This document shows, one piece after another, positions 1 through 22,695 of a stretch of DNA of 64,000 nucleotides. Positions within the stretch are counted from its first letter, which is position 1, and each line of letters opens with the position of its first letter. Origin of the DNA: Escherichia coli (lineage in GTDB: Bacteria; Pseudomonadota; Gammaproteobacteria; Enterobacterales; Enterobacteriaceae); NCBI RefSeq assembly GCF_024502345.1, contig NZ_JALDNN010000001.1. The stretch is one strand, 5' to 3'. The position numbers and the translations under genes were made by a program. Under the pieces are notes generated by a model that worked only from the letters and a program-made list of their open reading frames with translations, searched no databases and had not been told where the DNA came from.

Positions 1-989
1 GCTGGAATATATTTGCTATCAGCATCGCCTAATAGCACTTTAAGCGGGGCATCAATCGAGAATACCAGCGCAGCTACTTGTCCCAGGGTATTCGCAATGG
101 CGTAAATCACCATTAAAGTATTACCCATGTTGTAATACTCGCCCAGCTTCTGAAAGGCGTAATACTGACCGTTAGTCATTAAGTCATCCGGGATATCACG
201 CGAGTCAAACATCATGCCCATCGCCAGTGAGCCCAGAATGGCACAAACCGCAACCATCACCGCCAGGCATAGCATCCCTTTTGGAAATTCTTTTCCTGGG
301 TTGCGCGTTTGATTAACGTAAGGAGAAATCTTCTCTGCTCCGCCAACCGCGAAAACCAGCATTGAAATAGTGGTAATGTAGGTAAAGTCGATATGAGGAA
401 TGAACGTTTCCCAGGTAATGTTTGTGGTCGCAATATGCACTTCAGTAATCGCAGGCGCGGTTACCGCCATCGCCACATACAGGAGCGACATAACAAACAT
501 CGCAATCCCTGCCACAGAACCGACGATTTTCAGCGATTTCATACCGCGTGAAGCAACCCACATAAAGAAGATAAACAGCACCAGCGTTAACCCCTGTAAC
601 GCTACGACTGAATATTCTTTGATTAGCGAACCGTCGCCTTTCATCGCCCAACCGAGCGCAATCAGAATTGCCTGGGGTTTTTGTGCCAGATAGGGAATAT
701 GCACCACCCAGTAGGTCCACGCGGCGAGATAAGCCAGTCCGGGTCCCATCGTGTGTTTAATCCAGGTACTGACCCCGCCCTTCCCATCTTTGAAGGTCGA
801 GCCTAACTGACCAACAATTAGCGCATAAGGTGTGAAATAGAGTGCAAAGATAAACACCCATGAAAAAACAACCACCAGCCCCTGGTTGGCATAGTTATTA
901 ACAACGTTGCCAAAACCCCAGACAGTGATAAAAGACATCAGCGCAATGTTGTACCATCGCAACTGTTTTTCCTGAACATTCCCAGCCAT
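1..989 (-). CDS. ycaM: Putative APC-family amino acid transporter YcaM, N-terminal part (3' end lies beyond window start)
   Basis: Minus-strand frame open from ATG (complement of 987-989) to window edge; translation MAGNVQEKQLRW... is hydrophobic and transporter-like; position upstream of ycaD matches K-12 synteny. Not in ORF track because it is truncated. Confidence 0.8.
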   Translation of the reverse strand, partial: MAGNVQEKQLRWYNIALMSFITVWGFGNVVNNYANQGLVVVFSWVFIFALYFTPYALIVGQLGSTFKDGKGGVSTWIKHTMGPGLAYLAAWTYWVVHIPYLAQKPQAILIALGWAMKGDGSLIKEYSVVALQGLTLVLFIFFMWVASRGMKSLKIVGSVAGIAMFVMSLLYVAMAVTAPAITEVHIATTNITWETFIPHIDFTYITTISMLVFAVGGAEKISPYVNQTRNPGKEFPKGMLCLAVMVAVCAILGSLAMGMMFDSRDIPDDLMTNGQYYAFQKLGEYYNMGNTLMVIYAIANTLGQVAALVFSIDAPLKVLLGDADSKYIP

Positions 990-1148
990 AGACAAATCCT
1001 TCGCCAAAATTAAAGGGGCATCTGTAAAACGAGGGATTATGCGCGGCAAATAAGAAGTGCGGAAATAGCGAAATGCAAAATTATAACCTGCTGCACATTT
1101 TATTTTTAAACGAATAAAATTTGGAATAAAGCAAGTCAGATAGAAGAA

Positions 1149-1190
1149 ACAAAAAAGCAGAGTGTGAAACAGTAAGTTCACACTCTGCTT
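1149..1190 (-). terminator. Rho-independent terminator downstream of ycaD
   Basis: Inverted repeat agcagagtgtgaa...ttcacactctgct; on the minus strand it is followed by a T-run. Confidence 0.6.
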
Positions 1191-1198
1191 GAATTCAT

Positions 1199-2347
1199 TT
1201 ACACGTGAGCAACGGGTTTCGGCGTATGACCGGCGTTGCGCAGCAGCATCAGCAAATAGATAAACGATACGCTGGCGATCATGATAAACAATAAATTATC
1301 GGAGAAATTCTGCATTAGCATAGCGGTAAATGACGGGCCAAGCAGACTTCCCACAGTATAGCTCAACAGTAAGGCCTGGTTCATCGCCACCAGTTGATGA
1401 TGTTCAACTTTCTCGCAAGCCCATGCCATCGCCACCGGATATAGCGTAAAGCCAGCGGCACCGAGGATGAATAACGCTGGGGCCATCGCCGCCTGGCTAA
1501 GCATCGCGATACTGCCGAGAATGACGACAAAGACCTGAACACGCAACACCAGCAGTCGACCAAACTTATCCGCCAGACGTCCAATCGGCCATTGTCCAAG
1601 GATACCCGCACTGACCAGTACCGCCATCCAGAAACCAATGCTGGCATTGCTCACCCCTTTGTGATTGAGGTACAGCGGCATCAGGCCATATAGAGATCCC
1701 AGAACGATTCCTGAGATAATGCAGCCATTCACGCCAAGCCGCGCCTGACGGAGTTTTAGCATTGACGTAATTGACGTCGAATCATGGTTTTCAGCCTGCT
1801 GATTCAGCACACGCGTAAACAACAGCGGTAAGATCCCTGCCAACGTCAAACCTGTAACCCACGGCAATACGGACATCAGCTCGGTTGAAACTTTGCTGAC
1901 CAGTAACTGGCCTAAAAACGTTCCCACGTAATAAACCATCATATACGCAGCAAGCAAACGCCCACGGTTACGTGACGTCCCACTGCACATCAGCGCGCTC
2001 TCAACAACCACCCAAATCATGGCACAGCCGACGCCCGCGACAAAACGCCAAGCCAACCAGCTCCAGAATCCAATCATCAGGCCAAGGCCGGCACAGCCAG
2101 CGGCAAAAATGAAGGAGGCCAGATAATAGCTGCGGTTAAAGCCAATGCGCTTAATGACATACCCTGTCAGCAATGTACCGACAAGGTTGCCGGTAAAATA
2201 GGATGAGCTGACAACGCCTACCTGCCATGTGGACATGTGTTCCTGGGCGAGCCAAAGCGGCACGAGTGTATTTAACACCGCAATCGCCAGAGTCAACAAA
2301 AGCAGGCCAGACAGCAAAAGCATGACAGGCCGGGTATACGTGGACAT
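1199..2347 (-). CDS. ycaD: MFS transporter YcaD
   Basis: 382 aa ORF, multi-pass hydrophobic, [17 protein letters not shown]...; K-12 synteny. Confidence 0.92.
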
Positions 2348-2660
2348 GAATTAAAACCGTGAGGAAGTTCAAATTTCATGCGCATCATGCCACCGCCAAA
2401 AACATTGTCAATGGGTGAAAATACGCGATATCCCAGCGGCGGTATTATCGATTTATATTACTCATTCATAACGCTAATGCTGAAGAGATGATTAGTCTCA
2501 TCTGATTGTTTTTATTGAACTAACACAAATTTCATACGCTTCGTTCAGTCGAAAAATTTCATGGTCACAGCAAACTCATATTTCCCGTCTATGCTTTCAG
2601 AGCAATGCATCGCGTCTGATCGATTTCAGACGTACCACTGACTCTCGAAAGGAGAAGAGG

Positions 2661-3287
2661 ATGACCAAACCGTATGTTCGTCTTGATAAAAATGATGCTG
2701 CCGTTTTGCTTGTTGATCACCAGGCTGGTTTACTTTCCCTTGTACGGGATATCGAACCCGATAAGTTTAAAAATAACGTGCTGGCGCTGGGTGACCTGGC
2801 TAAGTATTTCAACTTACCAACTATTCTTACCACCAGTTTTGAAACCGGTCCTAACGGCCCATTAGTTCCAGAACTGAAAGCACAATTCCCCGATGCACCT
2901 TACATTGCTCGCCCGGGAAATATTAACGCCTGGGATAACGAAGATTTTGTAAAAGCAGTCAAAGCGACAGGTAAAAAACAGTTAATTATTGCCGGTGTGG
3001 TAACCGAAGTTTGCGTGGCATTCCCGGCGCTTTCAGCCATTGAAGAAGGGTTTGACGTCTTTGTCGTGACTGACGCGTCAGGGACCTTTAATGAAATTAC
3101 CCGGCATTCGGCATGGGATCGCATGTCGCAAGCTGGTGCGCAATTGATGACATGGTTCGGCGTGGCGTGCGAGCTGCATCGCGACTGGCGTAATGATATT
3201 GAAGGACTGGCGACGTTGTTCTCTAACCACATTCCTGATTATCGTAATTTGATGACCAGTTATGACACGTTAACGAAGCAGAAATAA
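2661..3287 (+). CDS. ycaC: Isochorismatase-family hydrolase YcaC
   Basis: 208 aa ORF MTKPYVRLDKNDAAVLLVDHQAG...; isochorismatase-like motifs; K-12 synteny. Confidence 0.92.
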   Translation: MTKPYVRLDKNDAAVLLVDHQAGLLSLVRDIEPDKFKNNVLALGDLAKYFNLPTILTTSFETGPNGPLVPELKAQFPDAPYIARPGNINAWDNEDFVKAVKATGKKQLIIAGVVTEVCVAFPALSAIEEGFDVFVVTDASGTFNEITRHSAWDRMSQAGAQLMTWFGVACELHRDWRNDIEGLATLFSNHIPDYRNLMTSYDTLTKQK

Positions 3288-3291
3288 AAGA

Positions 3292-3317
3292 GAACCGGGG
3301 CCGAAACCCCGGTTGTT
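3292..3317. terminator. Bidirectional hairpin terminator between convergent ycaC and dmsC
   Basis: aaccgggg-ccgaaa-ccccggtt perfect stem with flanking A/T on both sides. Confidence 0.6.
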
Positions 3318-3321
3318 ATGA

Positions 3322-4185
3322 TTAGCTTGCGACGGCCATCCCCACGGTCATATGCAAACCATAGAATACGCCGCGACCGATTAATTCCCCTGCCAGAAGC
3401 AGAATGAATGATACAGAAAGTAGCGGAACCGCAGGCTGATAACCTTTTAGCTGTGGTGCAATCCACAAGCACAGGGCAACGGCCAAAAGCACGATCCGCC
3501 AGGACATCAGCGCACCATAGTCCGGCACCAGCGCTGCGGCCTGCTGCACAGAACTATGAATAGTCGCCAGCTCTGCGCCCTGCATCACTGACACCACGCC
3601 ACTCACTACCAGTGCCAGTACAGAAATTGCTGGCAGCAGACGCATCGCCCAGCCATCGACGCCAGCCAGACTCAACAACAGGTAACCCAGTAACGGGCCG
3701 CCCATAAACATCGTCAGGAAGAAGCCCATCGGCGTCCAGATGCTGTACCAGGTCGGAACGGTATCAATGCTGTTATACACACGCACCATCATCCAGACAA
3801 AGACGACGCCAAGAACCATCGTCACCACCAGCCACAGCGTACGCAATGCCGGTGACAGCTTTTTCAGCATTGCCAGCAACCAGCCGATGCCGCCTACGGC
3901 AAAAAAGATCGAACCGCTGGCGATTTCGTTACTGAGTGCTGAAGCCCCTACCCGGTTGAGCGAGTTAAAAGCGCGCATTGGTGAACCAAGATGGAGCATA
4001 GAGGCGATAAAGCCAATGCCCATCAGCACCCATAAACCAAACATGCAGGCGATAACACGCTGCTGGGCTTCTGCTCGCAGGTCGCCTTTGAGCAGCGCCA
4101 AAGCCAGAACGATAAAACCACCTGCTACACATTGCCCGAAGACCGTGAAGATCATCAGCGGCCATTCATGCCATCCACTTCCCAT
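3322..4185 (-). CDS. dmsC: DMSO reductase membrane anchor subunit DmsC
   Basis: ORF-track ORF 3322..4248 trimmed to internal Met (MGSGWHEWPLMIF...) giving 287 aa; start abuts dmsB stop; hydrophobic. Confidence 0.9.
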   Translation of the reverse strand: MGSGWHEWPLMIFTVFGQCVAGGFIVLALALLKGDLRAEAQQRVIACMFGLWVLMGIGFIASMLHLGSPMRAFNSLNRVGASALSNEIASGSIFFAVGGIGWLLAMLKKLSPALRTLWLVVTMVLGVVFVWMMVRVYNSIDTVPTWYSIWTPMGFFLTMFMGGPLLGYLLLSLAGVDGWAMRLLPAISVLALVVSGVVSVMQGAELATIHSSVQQAAALVPDYGALMSWRIVLLAVALCLWIAPQLKGYQPAVPLLSVSFILLLAGELIGRGVFYGLHMTVGMAVAS

Positions 4186-4186
4186 C

Positions 4187-4804
4187 TCACACCTCCTTCG
4201 GGTTTGCCAGATAGCCAGTGGTATCCCCGGTCGGGCGGCTATTGGCATTGGGTTTGATCACAATATTCGGTTTGGTAAAGTGAGCTCGCGGCAACGGCGC
4301 AACGGCCGCCAGATCGCCATGTTTTTTACGCAGCTCGTCGATAGGGCCGAAATCCAGTGCCCGCAGCGGACAAGATTCAACACAGATCGGCTTTTTACCC
4401 TCCGCAACACGGTCATAACAACCATCGCATTTGGTCATATGGCCTTTCGTTTCGTTATATTGCGGTGCGCCATACGGGCAAGCCATATGGCAGTAGCGGC
4501 AGCCAATGCACACATCTTCATCGACCACAACAAAACCATCTTCACGTTTATGCATCGCACCGCTCGGGCAGACTTTAGTACAAGCCGGATCTTCGCAGTG
4601 GTTACATGAAATCGACAGATAGTAGGCAAACACATTCTGGTGCCAGACACCGTTATCTTCCTGCCAGTCGCCGCCAGCATATTCATAAATGCGGCGGAAG
4701 CTGACTTCTGGCGTCAAATCTTTGTAGTCTTTACAGGCCAGCTCGCAGGTTTTGCAACCGGTGCAACGGCTGGAATCAATAAAAAATCCATACTGGGTTG
4801 TCAT
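4187..4804 (-). CDS. dmsB: DMSO reductase iron-sulfur subunit DmsB
   Basis: 205 aa; four ferredoxin-type Cys clusters (CTGCKTCELAC, CNHCEDPAC, CIGCRYCHMACP, CDGCYDR). Confidence 0.95.
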   Translation of the reverse strand: MTTQYGFFIDSSRCTGCKTCELACKDYKDLTPEVSFRRIYEYAGGDWQEDNGVWHQNVFAYYLSISCNHCEDPACTKVCPSGAMHKREDGFVVVDEDVCIGCRYCHMACPYGAPQYNETKGHMTKCDGCYDRVAEGKKPICVESCPLRALDFGPIDELRKKHGDLAAVAPLPRAHFTKPNIVIKPNANSRPTGDTTGYLANPKEV

Positions 4805-4814
4805 CGGTTACTCC

Positions 4815-7259
4815 TTACACCTTTTCAACCTGAACAAGGTTTGTATGTGACGGATTCCCCTTAGCGAGAGGAGACGGACGTTGAGTGGTCAGTACGTTGA
4901 TACAACCGCCCTTATCGACACGTTTTGTATCCGGGTCATACCAGGCACCTTCACCCAGTGCGACCACACCCGGCATCATTCGTGGCGTCACTTTCGCCTC
5001 AATATGAACCTCACCACGATCGTTAAAGATCCTGACTTTATCGCCGTTGTTGATACCGCGTTTTTGCGCATCAAGCGGGTTGATCCACATTTCCTGACGG
5101 CAAGCTGCTTTCAGCACATCAACGTTGCCGTAAGTTGAGTGAACGCGAGATTTATAGTGGAAACCCGTAAGCTGCAGCGGATACTGTTTGTTCAGCGGAT
5201 CCTGATAACTTTCAAAGCCCGGCGTGTAGATCGGCAGTGGATCGATCACATCGCCTTCTGGCAATTCCCAGGTAGCGGCAATGTCAGCCAGCGCCTGCGA
5301 ATAAATCTCAATTTTACCCGATGGCGTGGTCAGTGGATTTGCCTGAGGATCTTCACGGAAAGCTTTATAAGCAACGTGGTGCCCTTGTGGGTCGCGCTTT
5401 TTAAAGATCCCCTGCTTGCGGAACTCTTCAAACGTTGGCAGTTCAGGAATCGCTTCCCGCGACTGGGCATACAGATGCCGCATCCACTCTTCCTGTGTAC
5501 GGCCTTCAGTAAACTGTTGCTCAACGCCAAGACGTTTTGCCAGTTCGCTGGTCATTTCATAGATGGTCTTACATTCAAAGCGCGGTTTAATCACCTGATC
5601 GTTGAAAATCACGTAAGACATATTCCCGCAGGATGCATCCAGTGCAAAGTCCATCTGTTCGGAAGCGGTGCAGTCAGGCAGCAGGATGTCAGCATATTTC
5701 GCCGATGAGGTCATGTGGCAGTCGATAACCACAATCAGCTCGCACTTCTTATCATCCTGAAGGATTTCATGGGTACGGTTGATTTCAGAATGCTGGTTAA
5801 TCAGGCAGTTACCGGCATAGTTCCAGATCATTTTGATCGGCACATCCAGCTTATCTTTCCCGCGTACACCATCACGCAGCGCCGTCATTTCCGGGCCACG
5901 TTCAATGGCATCGGTCCACATAAACATCGAAATGCTGGTCTGGATCGGGTTTTCCAAGGTCGGCATACGGACAAACGGTAAGCTGTATGAACCTTCACGC
6001 GCGCCGCTGTTGCCTCCGTTAATACCAACGTTACCGGTCAGAATCGCCAGCATCGAGATAGCACGGGTTGCGATTTCACCGTTAGCGTGACGCTGCGGGC
6101 CCCATCCCTGGCTGATAAACGCCGGTTTGGTACTGCCGATTTCACGAGCCAGTTTGATGATTTTGTCTGCCGGAACACCGGTGATTTGTGAGGCCCATTC
6201 CGGTGTTTTAGCCACGCCATCTGGCCCTTCACCCAGAATATAAGCTTTATAGTGGCCATTTTTCGGCGCACTGGCTGGCAGGGTTTTCTCATCGTAGCCA
6301 ACGCAATATTTATCGAGGAATGCCTGATCCACCAGGTTTTCAGTGATCATGACGTACGCCAGACCGTTAACCAGTGCGGCATCTGTTCCCGGACGAATAG
6401 GGATCCACTCATCTTCGCGCCCGGCACCGGTGTCGGTATAGCGCGGATCGATGATGATCATGCGGGCATTAGATTTCTGGCGTGCCTGTTCAAGATAGTA
6501 AGTCACCCCACCGCCACTCATTCGCGTTTCGCCAGGGTTATTACCAAACAGCACTACCAGCTTACTGTTTTCGATATCCGACGGGCTGTTGCCATCTGCC
6601 CAGCCGCCGTAGGTATAGTTCAAACCTTCCGCAATTTGCGCGGAGGAGTAGTCGCCGTAATGGTTCAGATAGCCGCCGCAGCAGTTCATCAGCCGCGCGA
6701 CCAGGGTATTTCCCGGCGGCCAGGAGCGGGTCATGGTGCCGCCCAGCGTACCGGTGCCATAGTTCAGATAGATAGACTCGTTGCCGTACTCTTTGATCAG
6801 GCGCTGCATATTGGTCGCGATGATGTCGTAGGCTTCTTCCCAGCTAATGCGCTCGAATTTGCCTTCACCACGCGCCCCGACTCGTTTCATCGGATATTTC
6901 AGGCGGTCCGGATTGTAGACACGGCGACGCATGGAACGCCCACGCAGGCAGGCGCGAACCTGGTGCAGGCCGTCGTAATTGTCATCGCCGGTATTGTCCG
7001 TTTCGACATATTTGATTTCACCGTCCACGACGTGCATACGTAGCGGGCAGCGACTACCACAGTTAACTGTACAGGCGCTCCAGATAACCTTTTCGTCTGA
7101 TTTTGTTGGAATGGCGCTATCGACAGCGTGCGCAATCCGACTAAAAGGTAATGTTAATGCGCTGCTGGCCATTGCCAGGCCGCCGATCGCTGTCGTTTTT
7201 ACCAAACCACGGCGACTCACCTCAGCAGCCAATACCGCATCAGGGATTTTCGTTTTCAT
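4815..7259 (-). CDS. dmsA: DMSO reductase catalytic molybdopterin subunit DmsA
   Basis: 814 aa; N-terminal twin-arginine signal (SRRGLVK); molybdopterin oxidoreductase-like sequence; operon order dmsABC. Confidence 0.95.
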   Translation of the reverse strand: MKTKIPDAVLAAEVSRRGLVKTTAIGGLAMASSALTLPFSRIAHAVDSAIPTKSDEKVIWSACTVNCGSRCPLRMHVVDGEIKYVETDNTGDDNYDGLHQVRACLRGRSMRRRVYNPDRLKYPMKRVGARGEGKFERISWEEAYDIIATNMQRLIKEYGNESIYLNYGTGTLGGTMTRSWPPGNTLVARLMNCCGGYLNHYGDYSSAQIAEGLNYTYGGWADGNSPSDIENSKLVVLFGNNPGETRMSGGGVTYYLEQARQKSNARMIIIDPRYTDTGAGREDEWIPIRPGTDAALVNGLAYVMITENLVDQAFLDKYCVGYDEKTLPASAPKNGHYKAYILGEGPDGVAKTPEWASQITGVPADKIIKLAREIGSTKPAFISQGWGPQRHANGEIATRAISMLAILTGNVGINGGNSGAREGSYSLPFVRMPTLENPIQTSISMFMWTDAIERGPEMTALRDGVRGKDKLDVPIKMIWNYAGNCLINQHSEINRTHEILQDDKKCELIVVIDCHMTSSAKYADILLPDCTASEQMDFALDASCGNMSYVIFNDQVIKPRFECKTIYEMTSELAKRLGVEQQFTEGRTQEEWMRHLYAQSREAIPELPTFEEFRKQGIFKKRDPQGHHVAYKAFREDPQANPLTTPSGKIEIYSQALADIAATWELPEGDVIDPLPIYTPGFESYQDPLNKQYPLQLTGFHYKSRVHSTYGNVDVLKAACRQEMWINPLDAQKRGINNGDKVRIFNDRGEVHIEAKVTPRMMPGVVALGEGAWYDPDTKRVDKGGCINVLTTQRPSPLAKGNPSHTNLVQVEKV

Positions 7260-7452
7260 AATGGCTCACTCAAGCTTGCTCACGATTGATTCCAGTAACA
7301 AACCGTATTGTGTAATTATTTCTATAGCAGCTCGCTATATAGGCTTGTATACATCGAATAATTTGAAAATCAAAGAGATAGGTAGATTTTCACTCGAAAG
7401 TAGTATTACGTGTAAGTGAGGAGTAATTATTGTTCGGTATCAAAGGGAGACA

Positions 7453-7478
7453 AAAAAAGCGCCCGTAGGCGCTTTTTA
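7453..7478 (-). terminator. Rho-independent terminator downstream of serS
   Basis: aagcgcc-cgta-ggcgctt hairpin flanked by A-run/T-run, 20 bp past serS stop. Confidence 0.7.
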
Positions 7479-7497
7479 GATTCAGAAAAATTGGGTA

Positions 7498-8811
<1,314 letters not shown>

Positions 8812-8880
8812 TTAAATGGGAGATGTGGCCACAGCCTGCGACCACAGGGATACAGTAACAACATTACCGCAACGATAACA

Positions 8881-10224
8881 TTAACGGTAGCGTTTTATGG
8901 GGCTATTTTGATCCTGTTCAGCCAGCCAGGCGAGCTTTTCGCCAATCTTGCCTTCAAGGCCCCTGTTTGTCGGGAAATAATAGCGTGTTTGTGCTATTTC
9001 CGGCGGGAAGTAAACCTCACCGGCAGCATAAGCGTTTGCTTCATCATGAGCGTAACGATATTCCTGCCCGTAGCCCATTTCCTTCATTAATTTCGTCGGC
9101 GCATTACGCAAATGAACCGGCACGTCATAATCCGGACGTTCGCGAGCATCCGCCAGCGCAGCTTTAAACGCAGTGTAGACAGCGTTGCTTTTTGGCGCGC
9201 AGGCCAGGTAAACAATCGCCTGAGCAATGGCGCGTTCACCTTCCGCCGGGCCAACGCGAGTAAAGCAATCCCAGGCCGCAATTGCCACCTGCATCGCCCG
9301 TGGGTCGGCATTGCCGACATCTTCGGAAGCAATTGCCAGGCAACGACGCGCGACATATAACGGATCGCCACCGGCGGTAATAATTCGCGCATACCAGTAG
9401 AGCGCCGCATCGGGTGCGCTACCACGTACCGACTTATGCAGTGCGGAAATGAGATCGTAAAAGCGATCGCCTTTGTTATCAAAGCGGGCGCTTCGCTCAC
9501 CGGCGATTTCGGTCAATAATTCAGGCTTCAGGACCCGCTTACCGCTATCATTGACTTCGGCCATATCCGCCATCATTTCCAGCGTATTTAACGCCCGGCG
9601 CGCGTCGCCATTCACCAGTTCAGCAATGGCGCGTCGTGTTTCATCTGGCAGAACAATATCCTGACCACCATAGCCACGGGTTTTGTCTTCCATCGCCTGA
9701 GTTAGTACTTGCTCAATATCCTCTGTACTCAGGGATTTCAACAGATAGACACGGGCACGGGAAAGCAGTGCCGAATTAAGCTCAAACGACGGGTTTTCAG
9801 TGGTTGCGCCAATAAAAGTGATGGTGCCGTCTTCAATATGTGGCAGAAATGCATCCTGCTGGCTTTTGTTGAAACGGTGAACTTCGTCAACAAAAAGAAT
9901 AGTGCGGCGACCTGCATTGCGGTTTTGCCGGGCGCGCTCGATCGCCTCGCGAATCTCTTTCACGCCAGAGGTGACGGCAGAAATACGTTCCACATCAGCG
10001 TTCGCATAGCGGGCAATCACTTCAGCGAGAGTTGTTTTGCCGGTACCCGGTGGCCCCCAGAGGATCATAGAATGCAGATGCCCGGCTTCGATAGCGCGCG
10101 GCAACGGCTTCCCCGCAGCCAGCAAATGTTGCTGGCCGATATACTGTGCTAAATTTTCTGGCCGCATACGCGCGGCCAGAGGTTGAAAAGTATTATCCGA
10201 AAAATCGAGCGACAGATTGCTCAC
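8881..10224 (-). CDS. rarA: Replication-associated recombination protein A (AAA+ ATPase)
   Basis: 447 aa; Walker [12 protein letters not shown]; MgsA/RarA-like. Confidence 0.95.
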
Positions 10225-11000: not shown

Positions 11001-14000
11001 TTAGTCAAACGGCGGTGGGGCCAGCACTTCACGATTACCGTTGTGCCCCTGTTCGCTGACAATCCCCTGCGCTTCCATCTGTTCGATAATACGCGCTGCA
11101 CGGTTATAACCAATGCGGAACTGACGCTGTACGCCAGAAATTGACGCTTTGCGTTTTTCAGTGACAAACTGCACCGCCTGATCGAACAACGGATCCAGTT
11201 CTTCAGCGCCATCGAAACCGCCCGCGCCACCTTCGCTTTCACTGTCGGAAGTGATGCCATCAACATACTGTGGGCGACCACGCGCTTTCCAGTCCTGCAC
11301 CACGGCATGAACTTCCTGATCGCGAACAAAAGCACCATGGACACGTACCGGCAACGTGGAGTTCGGCCCAGAGTAGAGCATATCCCCCATCCCCAGCAGT
11401 GATTCCGCGCCAGCCTGATCAAGAATGGTACGTGAGTCAATCTTACTGGATACGGTAAAGGCGATACGGGTCGGAATATTCGCTTTAATCAGACCAGTAA
11501 TAACATCAACCGATGGACGCTGAGTTGCCAGTACGAGGTGGATACCCGCGGCACGGGCTTTTTGCGCCAGACGTGCTATCAGCTCTTCCACTTTTTTACC
11601 TACCGTCATCATCAGGTCGGCAAATTCGTCAACCAACACCACAATGTATGGTTCTTTTTTCAGCACCGGATGCTGGGCATCCATACTGTCACCCGGCTTC
11701 CAGTACGGGTCTGGAATCGGACGCATCATGCGATCGGCTTCAGCAATTTTTTCGTTATAACCCGCCAGATTACGCACACCCAGCGCAGACATCAGTTTAT
11801 AACGACGCTCCATCTCGTTAACACACCAGCGCAGCGCGTTGGCGGCATCTTTCATATCAGTAACGACTTCCGTTAACAGATGCGGAATGCCTTCATAAAC
11901 CGAAAGCTCCAGCATTTTCGGGTCGATCATGATGAAACGCACATCTTCTGGCTGTGCTTTATAAAGCATGCTCAGGATCATCGCGTTCACACCGACAGAT
12001 TTACCGGAACCGGTAGTCCCCGCAACCAACAAGTGCGGCATTTTCGCCAGATCGGCAACCACCGGCTCACCGGCGATATCTTTACCCAGCACCACGGTTA
12101 ATGGCGACGGATTATCGCGGAATTTGGCGTTATCCAAAACTTCGCGCAGATAAACGGTTTGTCGTTTTTTATTTGGTAACTCCAGACCTACATAGGGTTT
12201 GCCAGGAATAACTTCAACGACACGCACCGCCACCGTCGAAAGTGAACGGGCAAGGTCCCGTGACAAGTTAGAAATGCGCGCCGCTTTTACGCCAGGAGCC
12301 AGGTTAAGTTCAAAGCGAGTGATAACCGGCCCCGGAGAGTAATTGACGACATCGGCTTTAATACGGAAATCAGCCAGACGCGCTTCCACCAGGCGAGCCA
12401 TTTGTTCAAGCGCAAAGGTATCTACCGGCTCCACTTCGCTCGGCGGCGGTGTCAGCAAATCCAGAGAAGGCAGCGGCGTCGTCGGTTTATGCAACGGACG
12501 GCTGTCGCCATTACGCATCAACAGCGGATGAAGCAGGGTATCCTGCGGCTGTGGCGCAACTGGCTGTTGTGGCTGCTGATACTGCGGCTGCGGCGCAACC
12601 GGTTGTTGCGGCTGTTGATACTGCGGCTGCGGCGCAACTGGTTGTTGCGGCTGCTGATACTGCGGCTGCGGCGCAACCGGCTGTTGCGGCTGCTGATATT
12701 GCTGCTGTGGCGCAACCGGCTGTTGTGGCTGTTGATATTGTGGCTGCGGCGCAACCTGCTGTTGTGGCTGCTGATACTGCGGCTGCGGCGCAACCTGCTG
12801 TTGTGGCTGCTGATACTGCGGCTGCGGCGCAACCGGCTGTTGCGGCTGCTGATATTGCTGCTGTGGCGCAACCGGCTGTTGTGGCTGCTGATACTGCTGC
12901 TGCGGTGCAACCGGTTGTTGCGGCTGCTGTACAGGTTCAACAATTGGCGTAAACAACGGTTCGTGTGGACCATCATCCAGCAACGCTTTCATTGGCGAAA
13001 ATTCAAAATCATCCAGCGAGAACGGATTCGCCCCAGCCGGTTGTTCGCCGGAATAACGTTGTTGTTGAGTTTGCGCAAACTGACGAGCCAGTTCAGCCTC
13101 TGCCGCAGCATCTGCATCTTCTGCGTTTACGGGCACATCATGTTGATACTGTTCGCCATAGCGTTGCTGCTGTGTCTGGGCGAACTGACGTGCCAGTTCA
13201 TCCTGCTGCATCGCATCGATTTCATCATCGTTATACTGATCGCCAGAATCATACTGATTGCGCTGGGCTTCACGGGCTTTCTCTTCCGCCGCACGCTGTG
13301 AGGGCAGCTTAATACCGTAAGACGCCAGTTCACGACGAGTTGGCACGCGGATACGTTTCGGTCGTGGCAACTGCGGGCCAATCCCCTCTTTGACTTGCGG
13401 ACGCGGTCCACCGCTATTTGCCAGACTGAAGACTGGCGCGGCAACGGTTGCGGCAGCCCCCGTCGCCAGTGTCGCTTTTTTCACGCCAGATGCCAGCGGA
13501 GAAACAGCGGCAGCGGCTTCTACTGGAGGTACTGCTGCAACAGAAGGCGCTTTCAACGAAGATTTGATCGGTTCTGGTTCTTTAACCGGTTCTGGAATCG
13601 GTTGATACCAGGCCGCAAGTTGTTCACGTTCACGGGCTCGCTTCTCTTCCACTTCTTCAAAATAGTAAAGCGGCGGACGCGCGGGTTTTGTCTCTTCTAC
13701 AACGGGTTCAGGCTCCACAACAGGCTGCTGTTCAACGGGTTGCGGCTGTTGGTACAACGGCTCCTGAGCGGCTGGCTGCTGATAAGTTTGCTCAGTCTGG
13801 TATGTAGACTGTGGAGCAAAAGTGGATTGCTGCTCTTCGGCTTGCCAGGCGTTACCTGCCACCGGTTGTTCTGGCGCAGGGGCATAATACGGCTGTTGCG
13901 CAGGCTGTTCCGGCGCAGTTGCATAATACGGTTGCTGAACAGGTTGTTCCGCCGCAGGAGCGTAGTAAGGTTGTTGCGCAGGTTGTTCAGCTGCAGGTGC

Positions 14001-15224
14001 ATAATACGGCTGCTGTGGCTGTACTGGTTGTTGCAGCGGCTCATTATATTGCACTGCAGGCTGCGCATATTGTGGCTGCTGTGGGTAACCTTCCGGTGCA
14101 GGAGCAATAACCGGCTCTCCCGTTTGTGGACCCGGTACAGGCTGCCAGGCTACTGTAGGTTGCGAAGGTGGAACATCAACAGAGGCAACAGGCGGCGTCT
14201 GAGTCACAGGTTCAACCGGCGCAGCCCAGCTTTGTGTCGCCGTGGTAGCAGCAGCTGCTACAGCGACAGGTTCGGTAATTGGCGCACCGTTTAATAATGG
14301 ATCGTATTCGTCATATTCTGGCTGCGTTGCACGATTGCCCGAAAATAGGACGTCGTCAGGGTCGGCAGCCACACCGCGTGCAGTGTAGGTAATCTCTTCG
14401 TCATCATCCATCCGCTTACCGGAGAACAACGCAGCGTCTGTTTGCCGCCCCATCGGATTAATGAATTTTTCCGCCAACCGTTTACGACGCGCTAGCGCGC
14501 CGCGAAGAATACGAGCACGGCGTGATTCATGCTGTTTGCCGTGGTTTTCATCTTCATACTCTTCGTCATCTTCATATTCATCTTCATCGACCCAGGTATC
14601 ATCGCGACGGGTACGATTACTGGCGAAGGTGAGAATGTTTAAAATCCAGCCGCCGAGTTTTTCAGCAATGGTCACCCATGACCAACCGGTGAACAGCGTC
14701 AGGCCCGCTGCCCAAACGCAGAGCAGCGCAATAGTTCCCCCGCTACTGTGTAGCAGTGGTTGTAGCGTAGTACTTAGTAAGCTGCCAATGACGCCACCGG
14801 AGGCAAAATACCAGATATCGTCAGCGTTGATTGCCGCCAGACCACAGGAGGTAAGGATGAGCGCCAAAACGCCAATGATGCGTAGCGAAACGGCAAAATA
14901 ATCAATGTATTCGTCGCTGGACTGATGACGCCAGGCAAACCAACAACCGCCGACAATAATGACGGGAATGGTGTAAGCCATCACGCCAAAAATAAAGAAC
15001 AGCGTATCTGCCAGCCACGCACCGGGCATCCCACCTAAATTATGGATAGGTTCATGCCAGGCCGTTTGCGACCAGCTGGGGTCCGAAGGGTTAAAGCTTA
15101 GTAAGGCAGCCATCAACCAGACGGCAAACAGGACAATAAGGATCAGCAACGCTTCCAGAAGGCGACGGCCGCTACTTAACTTTGTCAATGTGACTTCTTT
15201 GTCTTCAGTGTATTCCTGGCTCAA
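11001..15224 (-). CDS. ftsK: DNA translocase FtsK (linker-expanded, predicted 1407 aa)
   Basis: N-terminal membrane domain [31 protein letters not shown]...; C-terminal motor with Walker A GTTGSGKS; long PQ-rich linker with tandem repeats. Confidence 0.95.
12541..12930. repeat. 39-bp tandem repeat, ~10 copies, inside ftsK linker (encodes PQQPVAPQ[PQ]QYQQ units)
   Basis: Directly visible repeating unit ctgcggctgcggcgcaaccggctgttgcggctgctgata with minor variants. Confidence 0.9.
13860..14020. repeat. Second 39-bp tandem repeat block, ~4 copies, inside ftsK linker (encodes [13 protein letters not shown] units)
   Basis: Repeating ggcgcaggggcataatacggctgttgcgcaggctgttcc-like units; protein shows QQPYYAPA x4. 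Confidence 0.85.
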
Positions 15225-22476: not shown

Positions 22477-22564
22477 GGTGAGGTGTCCGAGTGGCTGAAG
22501 GAGCACGCCTGGAAAGTGTGTATACGGCAACGTATCGGGGGTTCGAATCCCCCCCTCACCGCCA
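22477..22564 (+). tRNA. serW: tRNA-Ser (anticodon GGA), class II tRNA with long variable arm
   Basis: GGTGAGGTGTCCGAGTGGCTGAAGGAGCACGCCTGGAAAGTGTG...GGTTCGAATCCCCCCCTCACCGCCA: acceptor stem pairs with the 3' end, GGA anticodon in loop, GGTTCGAATCC T-arm, 3' CCA. Confidence 0.95.
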
Positions 22565-22615: not shown

Positions 22616-22695
22616 CTGCCTGTACGGCAGTGAACATGGTGGGCGGGTGGAGTATGTTACCAGTGAATTTCTAAGCTGCCTGTACGGCAGTGAAC
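22616..22695. repeat. Two perfect 20-bp direct copies of a palindrome-containing motif (ctgcctgtacggcagtgaac), 60 bp apart
   Basis: Exact copies at 22616-22635 and 22676-22695; each contains the inverted repeat ctgcc-tgtac-ggcag. Confidence 0.85.

Follow-up and report, generated by a model that had tools for sequence, protein, structure and literature searches.

The DNA analysed here, a stretch of 64,000 nucleotides from Escherichia coli (referred to as the window), carries on its minus strand an open reading frame at 11001-15224 that starts with a TTG codon and codes for a protein of 1407 aa. The coding sequence was delimited from the ORF list and from alignment with the K-12 protein. The N-terminus of its product (MSQEY...) matches that of K-12 FtsK, and the two proteins are 99% identical outside two indels. 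The gene is preceded by lrp and followed by lolA and rarA, in the same order as around K-12 ftsK. The exact 1407-aa protein also sits between lrp and lolA on the contigs carrying an identical protein. Precomputed Pfam assignments for this exact protein comprise FtsK_4TM (PF13491), FtsK_alpha (PF17854), FtsK_SpoIIIE (PF01580) and FtsK_gamma (PF09397). By its domain set and by the lrp-ftsK-lolA-rarA synteny alike, the ORF codes for a DNA translocase of the FtsK/SpoIIIE type and is the orthologue of E. coli FtsK. The two lengths put forward in an initial sequence-only reading, i.e. 1407 codons here and 1329 aa in K-12, were both right, FtsK of K-12 MG1655 being a 1329-aa protein encoded at 933224-937213.

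The FtsK linker is described as an unstructured segment, rich in proline and glutamine, whose length differs between species and which is dispensable for growth (PMC5357621; PMC3140498). It nevertheless plays a part in divisome interactions and in the normal activity of FtsK (PMC5357621; PMC3870252). In the window, residues 179-905, which are essentially linker, contain 15% Pro and 18% Gln, a composition that fits the FtsK-L of E. coli (Bigot et al. 2004; Dubarry et al. 2010, summarised in PMC5357621). The final 129 residues of this linker (residues 766-894) are encoded by a tandem array at 12543-12929, minus strand, referred to below as array B. It consists of 10 units of 39 bp, nine of them full and the last of 36 bp, and occupies nucleotides 2296-2682 of the gene, in frame within the ftsK ORF. 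Tandem Repeats Finder describes it by a period of 39, 9.9 copies, 90% matches, no indels and a score of 599, which makes it the top-scoring tandem repeat of the whole 64-kb window. All other arrays with a score of at least 60 in the window are also located within ftsK. The in-frame repeat of 39 bp and about ten copies that had been proposed for the ftsK linker was thus recovered. Array B stops exactly where the motif opening the conserved C-terminal part of the protein begins.

Unit decomposition showed that the array B unit peptide ends with (Q/P)QY and that two 13-aa variant units are present. At the DNA level, nine different unit sequences are found among the ten positions, and their order in coding orientation is A B C D E F C G H I. 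The sites that vary among these units comprise eight third-codon and two second-codon positions. Pairwise codon differences between units amount to 131 synonymous versus 37 nonsynonymous ones, the latter all being P/Q exchanges. This mostly synonymous variation is partly expected from the codon structure of Gln and Pro alone and is a weak sign of selection on the peptide.

Since array B is free of stop codons in five of the six reading frames, three spurious ORFs from the ORF list lie over it. Two of them are antisense, on the plus strand: one of 299 aa at 12402-13301, made of LLILRLRRN... repeats, and one of 167 aa, rich in alanine, at 12449-12952. The third, at 12518-12976 on the minus strand, is on the same strand as ftsK and out of frame, and its 152 residues are rich in Ser, Arg and Asn. 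The long spurious antisense ORFs anticipated as a by-product of the repeats were thus found. An antisense RNA gene over array B was also considered and is unsupported, an Rfam scan of the window having matched no RNA family there.

The window contains a second and different 13-aa repeat, array A, at 13860-14015 on the minus strand, with four units of 39 bp that encode FtsK residues 404-455. It was found by Tandem Repeats Finder at 13864-14012 (period 39, 3.8 copies, 77% matches). In K-12, array A has two units. Alignment with the K-12 protein accordingly shows two gaps, one of 52 aa, or four units, in array B and one of 26 aa, or two units, in array A. The 78-aa excess over K-12 had been equated with six 13-aa units lying at 12541-12930; the arithmetic is right, and the location is not, as the six units are split four plus two between two unrelated arrays. 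Among 60 sampled complete genomes, array A has four units in 22, three in 16 and two in 21, and its state is unclear in one. The four units of the window thus correspond to the commonest state in the sample, and the two units of K-12 lie at its low end. For arrays A and B alike, K-12 has one of the shorter alleles of the species. Compared with the commonest array B allele, of seven units, the window is only three units longer. Among the best 120 public protein matches, a total of 1407 aa is reached in four ways, with differing lengths of arrays A and B. The matches were ranked by similarity to the 1407-aa query and are hence a biased list, from which no conclusion on length compensation between the two arrays is drawn.

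Array B is a known VNTR, the MLVA locus CVN001, which is already in use for strain typing. CVN001 is a 39-bp VNTR and belongs to the generic MLVA scheme that Lindstedt et al. 2007 set up for E. coli (cited in PMC8143711; PMC5217547). A paper of 2025 labels the locus "CNV001 (ftsK)" (PMC11773471). Both of its primers, whose sequences were taken from Table 1 of PMC8143711, have an exact and single match in the window: CVN001-R (GGCGGCGGTGTCAGCAAATC) at 12442-12461 on the plus strand and CVN001-F (AACCGGCTGGGGCGAATCC) at 13024-13042 on the minus strand. They are convergent, flank array B and delimit an amplicon of 601 bp (12442-13042). As the allele number is defined as (product size - 250)/39 (PMC8143711), this amplicon gives (601 - 250)/39 = 9.0. 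The window therefore carries CVN001 allele 9, which equals ten units by Tandem Repeats Finder counting. In silico PCR on the window and five comparison genomes yielded products of 601, 445, 445, 601, 562 and 523 bp, i.e. alleles 9, 5, 5, 9, 8 and 7. Among the comparison genomes, K-12 accounts for a 445-bp product (allele 5.0), the O121:H19 strain 16-9255 for that of 562 bp (allele 8.0) and Res13-Sevr-PER07-33 for that of 523 bp (allele 7.0). The two primer sites, the 39-bp unit with an amplicon that resolves to an integer allele, and the location in ftsK all agree, and nothing different in kind separates CVN001 from array B. Allele 9 exceeds the ranges published for the locus. Alleles 4-8 were reported in Swedish ESBL isolates, where alleles 5 and 6 stand at 40% each according to our reading of a flattened table, and alleles 5-8 were reported in Mexican STEC.

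The frequency of array B alleles was surveyed in complete RefSeq E. coli genomes by BLAST with the two array flanks only, the span between the flanks in each record being taken as the array length. An earlier 901-bp query that included the array had given ambiguous results, its pieces re-using units of the record and 9-unit alleles appearing as 'partial' matches, and flank-only queries were used instead. The sample consisted of two evenly spaced sets of 60 records, i.e. 120 of 5,426 complete E. coli genomes; it is not a full census, and the collection is biased to clinical and laboratory strains. Seven units were found in 58 of the 120 genomes and six units in 41. Eight units occurred in eight genomes, nine in two, five in one and four in one. 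In seven genomes the span was off the ladder by +15 bp, and in two it had no assigned unit count. None of the 120 sampled genomes carried ten units or more. By the rule of three, alleles of at least ten units make up less than about 2.5% of these complete genomes. The window allele is rare, not unique.

Long alleles do occur elsewhere. The complete genome of ETEC6335 (NZ_CP122588) has an ftsK of 4224 bp that codes for an FtsK of 1407 aa with ten array B units and gives a 601-bp amplicon, and the FtsK of H55, with 1394 aa, represents a 9-unit allele. In the best 120 public protein matches, FtsK lengths run from 1355 to 1461 aa and fall mostly on a 13-aa ladder, with 6 to 13 array B units in many unit orders. 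The array was to be regarded as ordinary rather than expanded if reference FtsK proteins of 1407 aa with ten units existed. That is partly the case, given ETEC6335 and the public proteins, and it leaves the allele uncommon and not unique. Alignment with K-12 and other E. coli and a count of the units, as had been suggested, returned 4 to 9 units in the sample and a longer array in the window than in K-12. The proposed strain variability of the linker is borne out by these counts and by the public proteins, which reach 13 units. Copy number differs among E. coli strains, as expected for a VNTR. Together, the data support the view that array B is an in-frame coding minisatellite that makes the FtsK linker variable between strains and longer here than in K-12.

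The order of the units gives indications on how copy number changes. Next to the 10-unit order of the window, A B C D E F C G H I, the 6-unit allele of OkiPb01680, one of the closest complete genomes (99.2% identity over 20 kb), reads A B C E P Q. The 8-unit allele of Res13-Sevr-PER07-33 reads A B C E M G T I, and the 9-unit allele of the O121:H19 strain 16-9255 reads A B A B C E P R S. The window differs from the Res13-Sevr-PER07-33 allele by two single-unit insertions and a few point differences. Unit D, located between C and E, is composed of the 5' part of E joined to the 3' part of C. This hybrid marks a one-unit duplication, such as would result if E mispaired with C one unit out of register, and gene conversion or point mutation could also yield it. 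Block duplications are repeated in other lineages, as seen in public FtsK proteins with the peptide unit orders amamambcbbl, ajbajbajbaad and abanopabanopd. The 10-unit alleles of ETEC6335 and of the window differ in peptide unit order (aaaaaabHCd versus aabccabbbd), which indicates that the same size arose independently, a case of size homoplasy. Changes thus proceed by whole units, following the 13-aa ladder, and have left a trace of misalignment in unit D, with a minority of alleles off the ladder by +15 bp. Units would be gained and lost by replication slippage or by unequal exchange between neighbouring units, a mechanism that we infer from the hybrid unit, the order patterns and general knowledge of minisatellites. 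The single-stranded DNA of array B has a predicted minimum free energy of -91.6 kcal/mol (z = -3.5 against shuffles). Its centroid structure is essentially unstructured despite this z-score, and such folding was not adopted as evidence for hairpin-driven slippage.

Repeats are found at the corresponding site in other genera. The conserved segment following array B served as query against a single genome of each species, and the upstream region of 80 listed loci, none of them from Salmonella, was translated and submitted to Tandem Repeats Finder. In 24 of these 80 loci an in-frame tandem array lies no more than 700 bp from the conserved (D/E)(S/T)L(I/L)HPxLMR motif, with periods of 6 to 57 bp that are all multiples of 3. 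Citrobacter werkmanii has 5.1 copies of a 39-bp unit (QQPAQPVAPQQHY, 97% matches), Superficieibacter electus 6.8 copies of 45 bp, Leclercia adecarboxylata 5.6 copies of 36 bp and Enterobacter sp. Bisph1 7.4 copies of 42 bp. Photobacterium piscicola has 8.9 copies of 48 bp and Xenorhabdus ehlersii 20.9 copies of 9 bp, encoding (QQP)n. Units are 87-100% similar within an array, and their length depends on the genus (12, 13, 14 or 15 aa, and (QQP)n). The clearest arrays of Enterobacteriaceae have units of 12-15 aa with usually one Tyr per unit. The site is largely poly-Ala in E. albertii and poly-Gln in Proteus. Among the 150 nearest FtsK representatives at 50% clustering (query residues 700-1407), strong peptide tandem repeats were found in only two others, none of the 13-aa PQ type. 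Coding repeats thus recur at the site upstream of the motif, a hot spot whose units differ with the lineage, and this fits either a tolerated, expansion-prone low-complexity tract or selection for a tunable spacer.

Related loci have been described in the typing literature. In Salmonella, ftsK contains a 39-bp repeat known as STTR7 or SENTR2, of which S. Enteritidis has 9.3 copies (PMC2430564); by this published description, gene and period are shared with array B. A repeat indel at ftsK nucleotides 2269-2352 of S. Enteritidis (PMC6137255) adjoins the 5' end of array B and lies in the same region of the gene. Its 84 bp are taken as two units in that study, which implies that a period of 42 bp was used there. 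The locus CVN004 in tolA (PMC11773471) is likewise an in-frame repeat used for typing. It varies between strains and affects a segment, extended or of low complexity, of a protein of the envelope or of division. It lies in another gene, has another unit length and encodes another peptide, and is likened to array B by description.

Two rival explanations were considered first. The ten units could be an artefact of assembly, since a repeat of 387 bp exceeds the usual length of short reads and may be mis-assembled from such data. This is highly improbable. At least ten independent contigs, ranging in length from 20 kb to more than 1 Mb, carry the identical 1407-aa protein. They belong to several NCBI assemblies and to one metagenome assembly of ENA, and the ENA contig (L002) has the same order of array B DNA units as the window. 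Nine distinct units among ten positions also allow the array to be assembled, the 601-bp amplicon falls exactly on the allele ladder, and the complete genome of ETEC6335 independently has ten units. The hypermutable look of a repeat within a gene could further suggest phase variation, with array B as a contingency locus by which the expression or the function of FtsK would be turned on or off. Against this, the 39-bp unit is a multiple of 3, the best 120 public FtsK proteins are all full length with intact C-terminal domains and no frameshifted alleles were seen among them, and even the off-ladder proteins and the +15 bp genome spans differ by whole codons. With all examined alleles in frame and the motor domains intact, array B was rejected as a phase-variable locus, a reading whose likelihood is next to nil.

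Given the part of the linker in divisome interactions and in FtsK activity, array length could matter. Unit number might then act as an adaptive tuning knob: it would determine how far the tether that joins septal anchor and DNA pump can reach, how elastic it is or what interaction valency it has, with lineage-specific selection on length. In favour of this proposal, arrays recur in frame at the same site in 24 of the 80 listed species representatives, all with periods that are multiples of 3, and the Enterobacteriaceae units mostly keep one Tyr in a P/Q context despite their differing lengths. Nonsynonymous variation between units is moreover confined to P/Q exchanges, and the linker is reportedly needed for normal FtsK activity and for divisome interactions. 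Yet two alleles, of six and seven units, dominate across very different phylogroups and hosts, and low-complexity Q/P tracts are intrinsically expansion-prone, so that recurrence needs no selection. That poly-Ala has largely taken the place of the array in E. albertii, and poly-Gln in Proteus, speaks against a strict sequence requirement. In the one allele swap found in the literature, two S. Enteritidis strains exchanged the 84-bp ftsK repeat indel, and the only assay performed showed no phenotype (PMC6137255). Adaptive tuning of unit number is on balance quite unlikely, and it is likewise unlikely that the array has been regenerated repeatedly in Enterobacterales as a tunable spacer. The functional literature consulted on FtsK-L treats the linker whole or in large blocks, and natural variation in unit number is not addressed there.

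The best explanation, and a highly probable one, is that of a tolerated minisatellite in a disordered P/Q-rich spacer, of which the window carries an uncommon long CVN001 allele. Array B most likely serves as a flexible spacer, with only loose constraint on its exact length. As the 39-bp unit corresponds to 13 codons, a whole-unit change would keep the frame and would only make the tether longer or shorter by 13 residues. Such changes are presumably near-neutral in a spacer that is itself presumably disordered. The resulting alleles would be tolerated and stably inherited within clones, and it is this stability that would make CVN001 usable as an MLVA marker.

As a discovery, array B matters little, since CVN001 has been a routine typing marker since 2007 and its Salmonella counterpart STTR7/SENTR2 is in use too. 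The consequences are rather practical. For annotation, the length of E. coli FtsK is not fixed, the listed public proteins ranging from 1355 to 1461 aa and K-12 lying below them with 1329 aa, so that differences from K-12 are not to be taken for errors; the antisense ORFs over array B should not be annotated as genes. For typing, the existence of two 10-unit alleles with entirely different unit orders means that methods based on fragment size can equate unrelated alleles. For the biology of FtsK, the alleles form a natural series of linker lengths, with 4 to 13 units in array B plus 2 to 5 units in the second array, that is usable for testing the effect of tether length on FtsK. If unit number did set the reach or the Tyr-based valency of this septal DNA pump, natural CVN001 alleles would differ in chromosome segregation.

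Repeat arrays at this position of FtsK are not confined to E. coli. Among 80 species representatives scanned with the conserved segment 3' of the array, 24 carry in-frame tandem arrays directly 5' of the conserved FtsK motif (D/E)(S/T)L(I/L)HPxLMR. In nine of the FtsK loci of comparison genomes (L010, L012, L013, L015, L017, L023, L053, L075 and L084), the arrays are located upstream of the point where the match begins, at a distance of about 100-700 bp. The size of the repeated unit varies (9, 36, 39, 42, 45, 48, 54 or 57 bp), and the copies that make up any one array are closely alike in sequence. Enterobacteriaceae arrays usually have a single tyrosine per unit, set in a proline/glutamine context. 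In the Escherichia albertii type strain NBRC 107761, a poly-alanine run (GCTGCC x 7, positions 2887-2927 of locus L007) is found in place of most of the 13-residue array, of which about two degenerate PQ units are left.

The ftsK linker of the window contains a second VNTR, array A (13860-14015, minus strand), which is independent of the main array B and comprises four 39-bp units whose encoded peptide ends in A/V. Its unit number is polymorphic in E. coli: in a sample of 60 complete genomes, 22 have four units, 16 have three and 21 have two, and a five-unit version is present among public FtsK proteins. No typing-locus name was found for array A. Directly upstream of array B, two copies of a linker motif with a spacing of 35 residues occupy FtsK residues 676-724 (13053-13199, minus strand). 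Since both copies are recognizable among the Enterobacteriaceae examined and one related copy, such as ALRQAFAEQQQARY, is found in Serratia and Xenorhabdus, the duplicated motif is a conserved island amid the otherwise variable linker. An 18-bp repeat of 2.3 copies (14548-14588, minus strand) codes for the acidic tract directly following the membrane domain.

Outside ftsK, a single CRISPR-DR4 repeat was matched at 22668-22695 (minus strand; 50 bits, above the gathering score), adjoining tRNA-Ser(GGA) (22477-22564, plus strand). No array surrounds this match in the window. The lone repeat may be a remnant of a type I-F CRISPR locus, because this region is the site of such a locus in some E. coli strains. 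Three sRNA matches at the Rfam gathering score, STnc130 (7350-7484, plus strand), naRNA4 (50116-50196, minus strand) and RybB (62870-62948, plus strand), look like ordinary features of E. coli.

The length of array B does not always follow the 39-bp ladder. In about 6% of the sampled complete E. coli genomes (records H147, H148, H178, H180, H283, H293 and H307), it deviates from the ladder by +15 bp. An additional QQPQY that shifts the repeat register is found in some of the public FtsK proteins, and such an addition would explain +15-bp lengths. Non-integer alleles are expected from MLVA sizing of these genomes. In two other complete genomes, H190 (NZ_CP034404) and H310 (NZ_CP148366), only one array flank gave the expected alignment, which could reflect a rearrangement, an insertion or a far longer array. 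Arrays of equal length can also differ in composition. Strain ETEC6335 (L004, NZ_CP122588) and the window (12543-12929) both have 10 units and a CVN001 amplicon of 601 bp, with unrelated unit orders (peptide codes aaaaaabHCd and aabccabbbd, respectively). This is size homoplasy: fragment sizing would give the two strains one identical allele call despite their unrelated unit orders.
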